NCBI GenBank assembly: GCA_951406725.2
Contig: OX597815.1
Location: 150,598,001-150,662,000 of the forward strand
DNA from: Octopus vulgaris
Lineage: Eukaryota
Length of the DNA: 64,000 nt
Direction of reading: 5' to 3'
Of the stretch, positions 28,158 through 63,180 are shown piece by piece. A program made the position numbers and the translations under genes. Each line of letters begins with the position of its first letter. The stretch's first letter is position 1. The notes beneath the pieces are model-generated. The model was not told the DNA's origin. It made no database searches and saw nothing but the letters and a program-made list of their open reading frames with translations.

Positions 28158-28283
28158 AATCACTTACAGCTGTTTCAGCCTTTGGTAATGGTAATTTGTA
28201 GTGCTCATAAATGTCAATTTATTGAGGTTGTGAGCAGTTAAAAATGAGGTACTTATATATTTCCATAGGCCTCGTCAGAGATT
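28158..28283 (-). ncRNA. Type I hammerhead ribozyme motif (C3-G8) with a long stem II loop
   Basis: AAUCU-CUGACGA-GGCCU...AGGCU-GAAACAGCUGU-A-AG; palindromic stem III; stem I imperfect. Confidence 0.7.
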
Positions 28284-29449
28284 ATAAAGTACATTCAAAA
28301 TATAAATATATACATGAAACAAGACACACGTACAAATCAATATATATAAATACACACACACACACATACACACACACACATACACACACAGATATATATA
28401 TATATATATATATATATATATATATACATATATATATTTACATAAGCAAATATATACACCTATACATGTATATAAACCTATAAATAGACATAATTAAACA
28501 GACATACAAGAATATAGACAATTATTCATACATATATATATATATATATATATATATATATATATATGTGTGTGTGTGTGTGTGTGTGTGTGTGTGTGTA
28601 TTACATATATACATGCTGGAGCGCAACATAGACATCCATGCCTATGAGTACATATTAAATATTTAATTATTACTAATATTATTATTATTATTATTATTAT
28701 TATTATTATTATTATTAGTAGTAGTAGTAGTAGTAGTAGTAGTAGTAGTAGTAGTAGTAGTAGTAGTAGTAGTAGTAGTAGTAGTAATATTAGTTTCTGT
28801 GTAATCATCATTTCACAATACACAGTATAGAAGATTCAAATATATAGTATACCACAATACAATGAACAGACGTATATGATAGATGTAATCTTAATTTTAA
28901 AATCATAGTCAATATATTAATATATCATAATATCATAACAGTTATACTAGAGCTACTGCATTATAATTCATCATACACATAAGTACATGCATATATATAT
29001 ATAGCTTAGGGTGTGGTAATCATTATATTGGCCAAACAGGAATATCACTCCGTCGAAGAACCACTCCGCAAAAACAAATCTGCCAACCACAATACAGACA
29101 GATACAGAACAGTGAACACATAGAAAGATGTGCTAGGAACCTTAATCCTAATTTCCTAATTTCCCCCTTCTATCAATGTTCACAGAACCCCTCAGTATGA
29201 TAAAAAATGAATAAAGAGGCAACTTTCATCAATAAATAACTTCCACAACTCAATATGAACACATAACTTAATACAGAACACTACTAACCTTTCAATTAAT
29301 ACCATCTATACATTCTATATACCATTCACATTACAGATCTATATCTACCCTAATTGCACCAAATCCAGAACTACTTACCTCACTTACACATAATCTTTTT
29401 ACTCAGGGACTAGTATACCCAACACGGTTCAGTAATCGGTGTGTATTCA

Positions 29450-29485
29450 AAGCAGTGATCAGTAATTTACGAAACCGGTATGATT
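29450..29485 (+). ncRNA. Minimal hammerhead-like motif with G3-C8 core
   Basis: AAGCA-GUGAUCA-GUAAUUUAC-GAAACCGGU-A-UGAUU. Confidence 0.65.
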
Positions 29486-29819
29486 TTAAATCTCTTTAAC
29501 AATTCACAATAATGACTTTTATTACCTTTATTCCTACCTCAGTTCATCTAATTGTATATATCTATCGTTACTTTTCATAAAAAGCCTTTACTTTTTTATC
29601 TCCAATGTGCATTTTCGCTTAATTTTCTTCTTACTTTCCCCTTACATTTCCACGTATAGTTTCTATTTTCTGTTTGTAATATATTTCTGTTATATATGTA
29701 TATATATATATTACTCAATGAAATTCCAACTTCGATTTTCACGCTTTATTTAAAATCTTATAATAATATAATATAATATAATATAACGAAATGATACAAT
29801 ATTAAATCTCCACTCTAAG

Positions 29820-29864
29820 TGAACTAGTACTTTCATGCATTAAACTATGCAATCGTCAGGTTCA
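29820..29864 (-). ncRNA. Minimal type I hammerhead (canonical C3-G8)
   Basis: UGAAC-CUGACGA-U-UGCAU-AGUUUA-AUGCA-U-GAAAGUACU-A-GUUCA; perfect 5-bp stem I. Confidence 0.8.
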
Positions 29865-30194
29865 TGCAGTTATGGCGACAGTTATGAATATATATATATA
29901 TATATATATATATATATATATATATATATATATATATATATATATATATATATTTTTATATATATATATATATATATATAGTAGAAATATGTTACAAAAA
30001 GAAAATATAAAATACACGCGGAAATGTAAGGGTAAAATATGAAAAATCAACGAAAATGCACATTGCAAATAAAAAAAAGGCTTTTTATGACAGGTAACGA
30101 CAAATATATACATTTAGATTGATTGAGGTAGTAATAAAAGTCATAAAAGTCATTATTGTGAGATGATTATAAGATGATAATAAAGTAAGAAAAC

Positions 30195-30236
30195 AAAGCG
30201 AACCATGGTTTCCGCAAAAAATCTATTCATCGCTTT
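30195..30236 (-). ncRNA. Minimal hammerhead-like motif with A3-U8 core (stem II degenerate)
   Basis: AAAGCG-AUGAAUA-GAUUUUUUGCG-GAAACCAUGGU-U-CGCUUU; perfect 6-bp stem I. Confidence 0.55.
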
Positions 30237-30434
30237 GAAAACACCGGCTAATACACTAATATATATAAATATATATATATATATATATATATATATATAT
30301 ATATATATATATATATATATATATATATATATATATAAGGATAAACATATTAAAAGTGTCCATGAGAAAACTCATTTAGATAAAAGTGCTGGGAACCACT
30401 GTGAGTAGGTTGGGAACCACATATTTTATAGTGT

Positions 30435-60119: not shown

Positions 60120-60421
60120 GGTTGCACCTAGAAAGTTACCTTCCGAAGCACAAGTCCAAGCAAGGTTGTTTATGGAAGTCCAGCAGTCGTCCATCCATAC
60201 CACCCTCCCCTATCAACGCCACCAATGTTATCCAAGGGAAAGGCAAAGGGACTGATACAGCTTGGTACCAGTGACGTTACAACTCATTTCTACAGCTGAG
60301 TAAACTGGAGCAACGGGAAATAAAGTCTCTTGCTCAAGAACACAACACAGAACCCTGTCCAGCAATGGAACTTGCTACCTCATGATTGTGAACCAGACGC
60401 TCTAACCACTGAGCCATGCGC
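60120..60421 (-). mobile_element. tRNA/CORE-like SINE with an RTE-type 3' tail
   Basis: Head GCGCATGGCTCAGTGGTTAGAGCG; TCTTGAGCAAGAGACTTTATTTC. Confidence 0.7.
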
Positions 60422-60541
60422 ATTTACTACAGTTTGATGTAATATTTGACAAAATACACAATTCTTATATATTATATATCATATATAATATATAAGATAA
60501 TATATGCTATAATATGCCATGTAATACATATGTTATACTGT

Positions 60542-60925
60542 ATGGCATTGGTGTGAGTGTGTGGAAAAAATTTTGCTTCCCAACCACATGGTCCTTAGTT
60601 CAGTCCCGCTGTGAAGCACATTGGGGACGTGACTTTTAGTATAACCTCGAGTCGGCCAAAACTTGTGAGTGAATTTTTTGACGGAAACTGAAAGAAATCC
60701 ATCGTGGGTGTGCGTGTGCGCGCGCGCGTAACTGTCACAACCGCTCGACAATTGGTGTTGGTGTGTTTATGTCCCAGTAACTTAGCTGTTCGGCATAAAC
60801 GAAACAGAGAATAAAGTACCAGGTTTAACGTAGTAAGCACTGGAGTCGATTCGTCCGAAGGAAAATTCAAGGTGGTGCTCCAACATGGCCGCAGTGTAGC
60901 AATTGAAGCAAGTAAATGGTAAAGA
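60542..60925 (+). mobile_element. SINE family A, full length, degenerate
   Basis: Head, body and tail present. Confidence 0.8.
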
Positions 60926-61214
60926 TTATATATATATATATATATATATATAGAGAGAGAGAGAGAGGGGGAGAGAGAGAGAGAGATAGATAGATGCATG
61001 TATACATAAGTAAATGTCAAACGATGAGAATGAGTGCTCAACACCTGGCTGTATATAAATATATATATATATATATACACATACCATACACAAACATACA
61101 CGCATATATACAACCGACTCCCACGTACATTCCGTCTACCAGTTTCACTGAATCAGATTCATGCTATGATAACTTTTTTTATTGGCCACACAGCGCTGAA
61201 CACAGAGGGGACAA

Positions 61215-62375
61215 ATACAAATGTAGAGCTTTTCGTTTCGAAAATGGAAAAGAAAAAGGAAAAAAGGGAACAAATGTAAAATTCCGATCAAAAGGGATCG
61301 GGAAAAAAAGCGATCAAAAGAGAACGTGTATCACAGAAAGACATTTTATAAAAAGTAAGAAACAAGATTAGGTTCATCCGTGGAAAGAAAAGCCTTCAGA
61401 AAAGACCACGGTAACCTCACGCAGGGAGAAAATAAACACATGAGAGCAAAGTGCTCTCTCTCTCACTCTCTCTCTCTCTCTCTCTCTCTCTCTCTTTACG
61501 ATTTACAGGATCATGCTCAAAGTGGCTTCGTCGCCCGCACGCACAATCTTTGCTACATTCACCCACCTTTTTTGAAACTATCACGAGACAAAACCCATCT
61601 CTCCATTCTCACCTTCCTTTTCAAGTGATACTTGAAAAAGTTGATGAGCAAGTGGACAGAGAGGTAAGTGTTTGTCTCTAATCCCTACGCTCGTGTTCAC
61701 CATGCACATTCTTTAACCATGGCCACCAGTAAGATGAAGACTGCTCTGCCTTCCCGGTTGAGGGAAGGTGGCGGAGCAATACCAACGATAGACTCGGCCG
61801 ACAGGCGAACTCGACATGACACCAGCTGTTCGGCATAAGCCCACAGGTCCGAAATGTTTGGACACTGCACGAGTGCGTGTAGAACAGTTTCATTGCTCTG
61901 ACCGAATCTCGGGCTAGTTGGTCCGGTGTGTCTCGAACCGTGCCTGTAGAACTTATCCCGAAAAGGTAATGCTTCTAGATAGCACTGCCAGGCCAGGGAT
62001 CTTTGGTAATTGTCCATAGGTCCCGGCCCGAAAGTTGTCATGAACAGGCAGGTCAGGTGTTCCTCGTCGACGCCCAGATTCTGCCCGAGAACGTCGTCGC
62101 ACCTCCCCTCCACTAATCCTCTATAGAACGCTTTTGTTGTAATGAAGTCGCACAAGTGTTGTCCCGGACTGCAGATTTGCTTGAGAGCAACGTGACACTC
62201 GCGGTGCCATTCGTCTAGCCTCGGTCTCTGTTTGATCCACGACAGTAGTATCACTTGAAAAGGAAGGTGAGAATGGAGAGACGGGTTTTGTCTCGTATAT
62301 GAAGCGCCGGAGATGTCGCAGTCTCAGCGCATGTCTGCGCATCTTCAACCACGGCATGCCTAGCCCTCCATTTAT
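61215..62375 (-). mobile_element. L1-clade (Tx1-like) LINE 3' end: ORF2 C-terminus with decayed zinc knuckle, plus 3'UTR
   Basis: GGLGMPWL; RSLAWQCY.EALP.RDK.YRHG...PTSPRFGQSNETVLHALVQCP (decayed CxxC..ET..H...CP); VAMVKECAW. Confidence 0.85.
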
Positions 62376-62709
62376 GATAGAAAACACTTGCAAGTGATGG
62401 CGTCCGAAAGGTAGGCCTGAACTCGAGATCACATAGCAACGAAGCGAATTACTTAATTACACAGCAGCTTAAGCCGATCAAGTGTTGACCCATTTGAATA
62501 CCACATTATCCCCTCTTTCCCTCTCCCCACACTCTCTCTATTTCTGTATGTCTGTCTGTATCCCTCACTCTGGCCAACAAACCGAATTTTCAACAGACTA
62601 GGCCATATACGTATGTAAATTATGTATATATATATATATATATATATATATATATATATATATATATATATTTAAAAAAGATGTGGAACACGAGTTGTGA
62701 TATATAAAA

Positions 62710-63180
62710 AAAGGAAATGAAGAAAATGCTGACAAAATAATTTAAGTAAGGGAGAGTATATTTAATTAGGTGAAAGTTCTTTTTACCGGTTACGCATTTG
62801 TTATACTTATCAAAAGATATTTTTTTAAGAGAGATAGAGTTCCTTTCTGATAGATTTTTTTCTCTTATCTGACTTTATGCTGGGTTTACTGTCTCTTATA
62901 TGTGAAAAAAGAGGCTCCAGAGTTGTTTAAGATTTGCTTGGTTTCGCGTCTAAAATTTCTTGTGGAGAATGGTCAATACAATTTTGATTGGTCATTATAA
63001 AGGGGTCACGTGAATGTTTGAATGGAAGTAGGTGTTGGGGTGAGAAAATAGGCTCCATATTAAAAAAAAATATCTTTTGATAAGCATAACAAATGCGCAA
63101 CCGGTAAAAAGAACTTTCACCTAATTAAATACACTCTCCTTTACTTAAATTATTTTGTCAGCATTTTCTTCATTTCCTTT
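62710..63180. mobile_element. (TA)n-flanked element with inverted repeats of about 120 bp (62710-62828 / 63060-63180), each carrying a U3-A8 hammerhead-like motif
   Basis: UCUU-UUGAUAA-GCAU-AACAA-AUGC-GCAACCGGU-A-AAAAGA at 63073-63112; position 13 is C in this copy and U in the other. Confidence 0.75.

Follow-up and report, generated by a model that had tools for sequence, protein, structure and literature searches.

Minimal hammerhead motifs with exchanged 3-8 core pairs in Penelope-like elements of Octopus vulgaris

A 64,000-nt stretch of the Octopus vulgaris genome (GCA_951406725.2, OX597815.1, positions 150,598,001-150,662,000, forward strand; hereafter the window) holds a series of hammerhead-like motifs whose core residues 3 and 8 differ from motif to motif, and the question raised is whether these are ribozymes of Penelope-like elements (PLEs) in which the 3-8 pair has been exchanged and re-paired. 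This pair is reportedly known from the active hammerhead conformation through the work of Martick and Scott in 2006. A hammerhead descriptor with N3 and N8 left free was run on the window, with 60 block shuffles as the null, and in its strict form gave seven matches against a shuffle mean of 0.5 (maximum 2). Six of these are among the 15 sites for which the initial annotation had proposed one common scaffold, and the seventh, at 29183 on the minus strand, looks like chance; the remaining sites were missed owing to decay or odd features. The common scaffold was upheld far above shuffled sequence, with the reservation that the site at 33494 is truncated and several others are decayed, and each position originally given matches the lower coordinate of its motif exactly or to a few bases (Table 1). 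No hammerhead was found by Rfam among the best 150 of 265 matches on the window or among 71 matches (E up to 10) on seven loci of this kind, only microsatellite-driven miRNA matches being returned, and Pfam gave nothing relevant on five open frames of the window.

Table 1. Hammerhead motifs and element features in the window
Feature	Core	N3	Position	Strand	Remarks
Type I hammerhead motif	C3-G8	28278	28158..28285	-	loop II ~90 nt; 8-nt palindromic stem III
GIY-YIG endonuclease remnant, 5'-truncated Penelope-like element, lineage 1			28970..29254	+	upstream of 29455 motif
Minimal hammerhead, family B	G3-C8	29455	29449..29486	+	3-bp stem II; 6-nt palindrome; A17
Minimal hammerhead	C3-G8	29859	29820..29864	-	clean; strict descriptor
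Hammerhead-like motif	A3-U8	30230	30194..30237	-	7-bp stem I; stem II just 1-2 bp; one extra base beside GAAA; 8-nt palindrome
Minimal hammerhead, family A	G3-C8	33454	33412..33461	-	inverted copy; clean
36-bp local duplication of family A motif 5' part			33494..33529	+	without stem III
Minimal hammerhead, family A, lineage 2	G3-C8	33537	33530..33579	+	clean; 7-bp stem I; extra G after A9; 5-bp stem II; 6-nt palindrome; U17
Hammerhead motif	reads U3-G8	36229	36176..36235	-	C3-G8 family, private mutation
Second local copy	same private U3	36740	36687..36746	-	C3-G8 family
Terminal repeat, very young lineage 1 family			39216..39716	+	between (TA)n runs
Motif in the above repeat	U3-A8	39617	39610-39657	+	weak stem I (4/7 pairs formed)
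Decayed minimal hammerhead	C3-G8	44153	44148..44193	+	C3-G8 in most copies of its family
Minimal hammerhead, lineage 2	U3-A8	48229	48196..48232	-	clean; 3-bp stem I
GIY-YIG remnant related to family A frame			48770..49036	-	upstream of 48229 motif
Hammerhead-like motif, lineage 1	U3-A8	49246	49240..49284	+	register ambiguous; extra A in GAAA
Old decayed hammerhead-like motif	C3-G8	50427	50421..50480	+	stem III not palindromic
Inverted second copy of 63077 motif			62780..62817	-	absent from the initial annotation
Hammerhead-like motif, young lineage 1 family	U3-A8	63077	63073..63110	+	C replaces A13

It could be supposed that the motifs were picked out of AT-rich repeats because positions 3 and 8 happened to pair, a bias of which the initial annotation had itself warned, and in favour of this some of its sites fail the strict descriptor and one of its pairs, U3-G8, is a private mutation. 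Such an artefact is largely refuted, and very improbable, since pairing is favoured by a blind descriptor run on unselected DNA, by shuffles and decoy cores, and by the family alignments. From an unselected 800-kb sample of the genome, searched with N3 and N8 free, 18 of 20 matches were Watson-Crick paired at 3-8 (11 C-G, seven of them in one tandem array, 5 U-A and 2 G-C); shuffles of the sample gave 0-2 matches, and four decoy cores gave 0-2 each, none of them paired. At 81 other RT-bearing loci (80 from metagenomes and one genome contig) a loose descriptor found 31 of 33 matches paired (24 C-G, 5 U-A, 1 G-C, 1 A-U) against a shuffle mean of 0.7, and strict matches beside Penelope-like RTs from metagenomes were paired in 19/19 cases. 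Descriptor matches are related rather than independent, and crude de-duplication leaves 35 of 39 paired. The mutual information between positions 3 and 8 is 1.12 bits, a value reached in 0 of 5000 permutations, with 453-2428 of 5000 permutations as high for four control position pairs; avoidance of the inhibitory 3-17 pair gave no signal (permutation 2132/5000). Positions 3 and 8 do stay able to pair, as had been proposed, and unpaired combinations, whose equal frequency had been named as grounds for rejecting the proposal, occur in unselected sequence at background level only. Cores other than C3-G8 make up 7/18 of the paired matches in the genome sample and 7/31 at the other loci, bearing out the expectation that CUGANGA-based searches miss swapped cores, and both G3-C8 and A3-U8 turn up again at other loci, next to unrelated RTs.

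All four Watson-Crick 3-8 pairs occur as family-level states, and G3-C8 and A3-U8 are states of families, not accidents, in agreement with the suggestion that several retroelement lineages use swapped cores. Family A is G3-C8 in 41 of 45 copies. In family B, whose copies are ~90% identical, 19 of 30 are A3-U8, nine are G3-C8 and two are unpaired singletons, with no G3-U8 or A3-C8 intermediate among the 30, and this split represents one swap event. Its sister, the family at 30230, is A3-U8 in 10/10 other copies, and the family at 49246, which locus L171 links to a lineage 1 frame, has U3/A8 in 8/8 other short copies. C3-G8 was read in every other copy of the families at 28278 (7/7) and 29859 (6/6), in 2/4 fetched relatives (74-89% identical) of the motif at 50427, and in 9/9 other fetched copies of the 36229/36740 family. 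The U3-G8 core reported at 36182 and 36693 on the minus strand had to be withdrawn as a variant, being a C-to-T change private to two local copies of that last family. Ten of 12 copies of the 44153 family are C3-G8 and two share an unpaired A3-G8, so that a broken pair may not have kept some lineage from spreading; these two copies and single copies elsewhere are the exceptions to pairing.

The motifs lie 3' of Penelope-like RT/GIY-YIG frames and in the same sense, which confirms the association with PLEs. Location in terminal repeats, in sense with the ORF, was found for L132 (both repeats), L133, L153, L154, L171 and L286, and is no more than putative for the 28278, 29859, 36229, 44153 and 50427 families. 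L132 is the full element of the repeat at 39216..39716, for which 40/40 scored matches are 100% identical over 161 bp, and the family A motif follows open frames, 1025 and 839 codons long (L153, L154), the longer being an RT-endonuclease frame. Pfam RVT_1 scores above cut-off in L133 and just under it in L132, and GIY-YIG was found in both; L153 has GIY-YIG only by Pfam, its RT motifs being recognised by eye and by weak BLASTP matches. An RT followed by a C-terminal GIY-YIG is the layout of EN+ PLEs, and the CX2-5CxxC linker before the endonuclease is present in L132 and L153. Of the endonuclease remnants in the window, that at 28970 matches the L132 frame (tblastn 45%, E 1e-15) and that at 48770 the family A frame (51% over 89 aa, E 5e-20). 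Between lineages 1 and 2, similarity is confined to patches of ~25% identity. In an RT tree without named reference sequences, supported branches force at least six changes for U-A and two each for G-C and A-U; all three lineage 1 rows group together (100/99), with C3-G8 relatives around them. No relative of either RT turned up in viral collections; prokaryote genome contigs held one lineage 2 locus with no descriptor match, and lineage 2 is for this reason without outgroup cores. A 5.2-kb tandem on contig C28, considered as a full element, proved to be a duplicated gene with family A copies in it. Embedding in (TA)n, as initially described, is directly visible for the families at 29455, 29859, 30230, 33454-33537, 39617, 49246 and 63077, but not at the boundaries examined for 28278, 36229, 44153 and 48229.

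Judged from sequence, it is reasonably probable (roughly 70%) that these are minimal type I hammerheads of PLE terminal repeats in which the 3-8 pair has been swapped repeatedly and independently (C-G, U-A, A-U, G-C), likely because selection maintains the active, catalytic fold and with it the ability of the element RNA to cleave itself; RNAs with swapped cores would then likely still be selected to fold into the self-cutting shape. The full core (U4 G5 A6 N7, A9, G12 A13 A14, A15.1-U16.1, H17) is present in families A, B, 48229, 29859, 36229, L198 and L218, and is departed from in the 63077 family, which has G-C-A-A instead of G-A-A-A throughout its copies (97-100% identical), and in the 30230 and 49246 families, an extra base lying at or beside G12 in the latter and in most 30230-type copies. 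An unlikely alternative is that the fold is kept as a structure, such as a protein-binding or reverse-transcription signal, and not for cleavage, with 3-8 co-varying as part of it. The 3-8 pair is said to belong to the active conformation, and the constancy of U4, G5, A6, A9, G12 and A15.1-U16.1 across swapped families, like the 0-2 matches to each of the single-site-relaxed descriptors, speaks against a purely structural role; the young families in which A13 is replaced by C or GAAA has gained bases fit it better. It would also accord with the poor cleavage that minimal hammerheads show in vitro (Cervera and De la Pena, 2014; PMC4209133) and with the anole element, in which, in the part of the study covered, ribozyme mutants were without effect on insertion in vitro, the ribozyme being dispensable, and no RNA-seq ends mapped to the cut site (Frangieh et al., 2024; PMC11167929). 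In the octopus, contigs from four sequencing runs placed on 29010-29690 of the window showed no molecule ends, which bears neither on expression nor on cleavage.

Stems I and II are clear for family A, 29859, L198 and L218 (for the last two from MFE folds only), and stem II of 48229 resembles that of family A with one pair compensated. One or other of the two is weak in lineage 1, and in the 29455, 39617 and 63077 monomers folding stems I and II together costs energy (+1.4 to +4.7 kcal/mol). Co-variation was observed in stem I, where pair 2.1-1.1 alternates between A-U and G-C, and in the palindromic stem III, eight antisense rows caused by the palindrome having been left out of this comparison. 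The palindromes, 4-10 nt overall and 6, 8 or 10 nt in lineage 1, vary in length with symmetry kept, as had been described for all sites, the motif at 50427 excepted. A mixed case, in which the A, 48229, L198 and L218 types work and lineage 1 is losing its ribozyme, its A3-U8, G3-C8 and U3-A8 cores being relics drifting in a few master copies, is rather improbable. The very short stem II, the variable insert beside G12, C13 and the weak stem I of the youngest lineage 1 family would suit it, as would the spread of Naiad and most Chlamys elements without canonical hammerheads (Craig et al., 2021; PMC8557442, as far as covered). Drift, however, predicts unpaired consensus cores, and the family-level cores of lineage 1 comprise three paired states and no unpaired one; its stem I and palindrome length co-vary, and in L173 and L174, C3-G8 relatives from other animals, stem II is already down to 1-2 bp.

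Under selection for the active fold, two motifs would pair through the palindromic stem III, for instance those of the upstream and downstream repeats of one transcript, probably aided by the element's protein, and the 8-3 base pair would position the ribose of residue 8 and G12 at the scissile bond. Cutting after N17 would trim the element RNA from a host or tandem transcript longer than itself. A 3-8 pair of any Watson-Crick type would serve, so swaps may pass through a short-lived wobble or mismatch before becoming fixed. Repeated, independent swapping and re-pairing of a tertiary pair of the active fold would be evolutionary evidence of selection on that fold. PLE minimal hammerheads are slow in vitro and were dispensable for insertion in the one reconstituted system, and the swapped families offer ready-made natural constructs for probing whether they cut in vivo. 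CUGANGA descriptors and Rfam are shown to undercount PLE hammerheads, and several swapped families deviate from the canonical core outside 3-8 as well. A bolder reading, which we offer tentatively and hold to be doubtful, is that the pair flipped many times between the four Watson-Crick types, that some ten thousand G3-C8 and A3-U8 ribozymes are hidden in this genome, and that one lineage has a relaxed-core, protein- or dimer-dependent hammerhead (purine 3, a 1-2-bp stem II, a GAAA strand with C13 or one base more) which still cleaves. In PLEs, evolution would then have carried out a mutational scan of the hammerhead active site, including a relaxed-core form so far undescribed.

No natural G3-C8 or A3-U8 core was found in the parts of the literature covered, in which these are otherwise laboratory mutants and whose scope stops short of the largest survey, by Lunse, Weinberg and Breaker in 2017. 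That survey reportedly comprises ~150,000 small hammerheads associated with PLEs, which cleave in dimeric form; the RNA class and the dimer mechanism are the same, and it may or may not include such cores. With the metazoan PLE minimal hammerheads the octopus motifs share terminal repeats, a short stem I, an extra base after A9, a common G10.1-C11.1, the palindromic stem III and the U3-A8 variant, which was rightly taken as known (~1,300 matches in Schistosoma mansoni); the descriptors used there admitted C3-G8 and U3-A8 only, and the representative alignment, in the part covered, has C3-G8, two U3-A8 and one U3-G8 but no G3-C8 or A3-U8 (Cervera and De la Pena, 2014; PMC4209133). To these the octopus adds both purine-3 forms as family states and, in lineage 1, changes in the GAAA strand and a stem II of very few pairs. 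The first natural U3-A8 co-variation was described by Perreault et al. (2011; PMC3088659), whose variants also show a U13a insert in the GAAA strand, a 1-2-bp stem II and a U10.1-U11.1 mismatch; section 8 of that paper names just U3-A8 for 3-8, and the variants are not retroelement families. The host elements resemble Neptune and Nematis EN+ PLEs, by description, in the C-terminal GIY-YIG, the CX2-5CxxC linker, (TA)n targets and tandem and inverted copies (Craig et al., 2021; PMC8557442, as far as covered). The PAc Poseidon hammerhead is likewise a Penelope-like terminal-repeat ribozyme and is assisted by protein, which its cleavage needs; engineered C3G/G8C partly restores cleavage in vitro (Frangieh et al., 2024; PMC11167929, in the part covered). 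G3-C8, a laboratory mutant there, is found in octopus as the natural core of a high-copy family with open frames.

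The window lies in a genome of 2.8 Gb (~30 large contigs) and is AT-rich, with abundant microsatellites and several GIY-YIG remnants. The initial annotation had listed 15 hammerhead sites within it, with a core pair between residues 3 and 8 that co-varies through all four Watson-Crick combinations. On sequence inspection the core letters were present as claimed at 15/15 sites, and a descriptor with N3 and N8 left free gave 7 matches in the window vs 0.5 in shuffles. Reading the U3-G8 core at 36229 as a variant had to be abandoned, as the other copies of that family were C3-G8 (9/9); one distant relative is G3-G8.

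Motifs (position of N3) and related features in the window and in fetched loci (L-numbers)
Position	Strand	Feature	Remark
29455	+	clean motif or copy	family B, lineage 1
29859	-	clean motif or copy	
33454	-	clean motif or copy	family A, lineage 2
33537	+	clean motif or copy	family A, lineage 2
48229	-	clean motif or copy	lineage 2
33494		truncated duplicate	
30230	-	motif with departures	sister of family B
39617	+	motif with departures	lineage 1
49246	+	motif with departures	lineage 1
63077	+	motif with departures	lineage 1
28278	-	motif with departures	
44153	+	decayed C3-G8 motif	
50427	+	decayed C3-G8 motif	
36229 family		two U3-G8 copies	
28158-28285	-	loop II of ~90 nt in the 28278 motif	exceeds usual descriptor limits; retained in 8/8 copies of the hammerhead family
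34300-34700	+	further GIY-YIG remnant, different type	no hammerhead from the descriptor there
52318-52536	-	GIY-YIG remnant	near 52715 a heavily decayed C3-G8 motif, relative of the L087 family, absent from the initial annotation
L033:2307-4513	both	tandem array, ~355-bp units	C3-G8 hammerhead in each unit
L132:3701-4900	-	400-codon frame	upstream of the RT-endonuclease frame, overlapping it in another frame

Pairing at 3-8 was then counted blind in 80 evenly chosen 10-kb stretches of the genome (800 kb, unselected). The strict descriptor gave 20 matches, comprising 11 C3-G8 (seven of them from a single tandem array), 5 U3-A8, 2 G3-C8, no A3-U8 and 2 unpaired. Twelve shuffles of this sample gave 0–2 matches each, four scrambled cores used as decoys gave 2, 0, 1 and 0 (none paired at 3-8), and relaxing U4, G5, A6 or A9 gave just 0–2. 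An outside set of 81 Penelope-like RT loci (80 kept from 369 confirmed metagenome stretches, and one genome contig) returned 33 matches to a looser descriptor (shuffle mean 0.7): 24 C-G, 5 U-A, one G-C (L198), one A-U (L218) and two U-U with irregular stems; at the strict setting 19/19 were paired. After crude de-duplication 35/39 were paired and 3-8 mutual information was 1.12 bits, with 0/5000 permutations as high, a result that is not a formal probability because the rows are related. Control position pairs in the same rows (3-7, 7-8, 3-17, 8-17) were unremarkable. Unpaired 3-8 combinations, which by the initial annotation would refute the claim if they equalled paired ones in frequency, were not as common as these in the blind counts.

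Family copies were mostly best matches to the window copy and hence no random draw. C3-G8 was found in 7/7 copies of the 28278 family, 6/6 of the 29859 family and 10 of 12 of the 44153 family. The remaining two (L041, L002) share an unpaired A3-G8 and other changes; they may form a subfamily that multiplied with a defective ribozyme, and no other copies hinted at a lineage whose pair is broken. Two more U3-A8 families occur outside the window (L044, L049, L051, L058, L067), with 3/3 and 5/5 copies. The L033 array looks like a non-LTR retrozyme.

Within lineage 1, one of two Penelope-like RT/GIY-YIG lineages, family B was counted in 30 copies (the window copy and 29 of ~40 matches listed), giving 19 A3-U8, 9 G3-C8, one A3-G8 and one A3-A8; G3-U8 or A3-C8 intermediates were absent among them. 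Its 30230 sister family was A3-U8 in 10/10, and among 20 loci picked by endonuclease the core was visible in 14 (12 A3-U8, one A3-A8, one A3-C8). As these are mostly A3-U8, the likeliest source of G3-C8 in family B is an A3-U8 core altered by two transitions, as one event. Pair 2.1-1.1 is either A-U or G-C throughout this lineage, whose stem III palindromes measure 6, 8 or 10 nt. The U3-A8 family of 39617 is very young (40/40 scored matches identical over 161 bp), and in the full element L132 the motif occurs in both terminal repeats flanking a 781-codon RT-GIY-YIG frame. The 49246 and 63077 families, also U3-A8, are linked to lineage 1 frames. The extra L132 frame, for which Pfam gave nothing above cut-off, may be an upstream ORF or a retained intron of an EN+ element. 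In L173, L176 and L177, relatives of L132, a long frame begins just 3' of the hammerhead.

In lineage 2, 45 family-like copies of family A were kept from 55 pattern matches (10 unrelated dropped), of which 41 were G3-C8, two G3-G8, one A3-C8 and one a deletion. About 1 kb before the motif, L153 and L154 carry open RT-endonuclease frames with 1025 and 839 codons, respectively. Rough extrapolation from 9 matches per 800 kb suggests some ten thousand copies as an order of magnitude. In the 48229 family (U3-A8) the endonuclease is related (51%) to that of family A, and stem II is also similar, one of its pairs being compensated. At L031 and L032, a 316-codon frame resembling an alpha-1,3-fucosyltransferase is duplicated in tandem (5.2 kb), with family A copies in each unit.

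A tree built from 34 RT rows, with motif-less loci left out, required seven changes of the U-A label (at least six forced by supported branches) and two each of the G-C and A-U labels; here L133 was labelled A-U by its subfamily (own copy A3-A8), L173 and L174 were labelled by reading, and the L153 row is long and poorly filled. All three lineage 1 rows group in one 100/99 clade amid relatives that are C3-G8. Without reference to the tree, G3-C8 is present in three settings (within family B, in family A and in L198), and the RT of family A is ~25% alike to that of family B's lineage, in patches only.

The anatomy, place, orientation and co-variation of the motifs are direct observations. In the active hammerhead fold, residues 3 and 8 form a pair, and it is the ribose through which residue 8 acts; the base at 3/8 is therefore free to change while the pair persists. 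All four 3-8 pairs are said, in work of Przybilski and Hammann from 2007, to support cleavage in vitro. Two motifs may dimerise via the palindromic stem III, for which self-duplex energies were -0.2 to -13.9 kcal/mol for most and +2.2 for the 4-nt palindrome. An element protein might help the ribozyme, and cleavage after N17, the residue before the cleavage site, would free the element RNA. Several points count against this mechanism: in lineage 1 the monomer stems are weak, a young family has C13, and PMC11167929 describes a ribozyme that insertion in vitro did not require and of which RNA-seq showed no ends. That lineage 1 has a relaxed-core hammerhead still able to cleave is rather unlikely.

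Minimal hammerheads of these elements, and U3-A8, were already described in PMC4209133, whose representative alignment is without G3-C8 and A3-U8. PMC3088659 reports natural U3-A8 and mentions earlier in vitro proof, and G3-C8 appears as an engineered mutant in PMC11167929 and PMC3884650 (further context: PMC8557442, PMC6765202, PMC7761336, PMC11014351, bioRxiv 10.64898/2026.07.22.740005). Literature searches, at the level of listings and the opening lines of abstracts, found no natural G3-C8 or A3-U8. The core-swapped motifs are real and general, apparently under-described, and an expected extension of the known motif.
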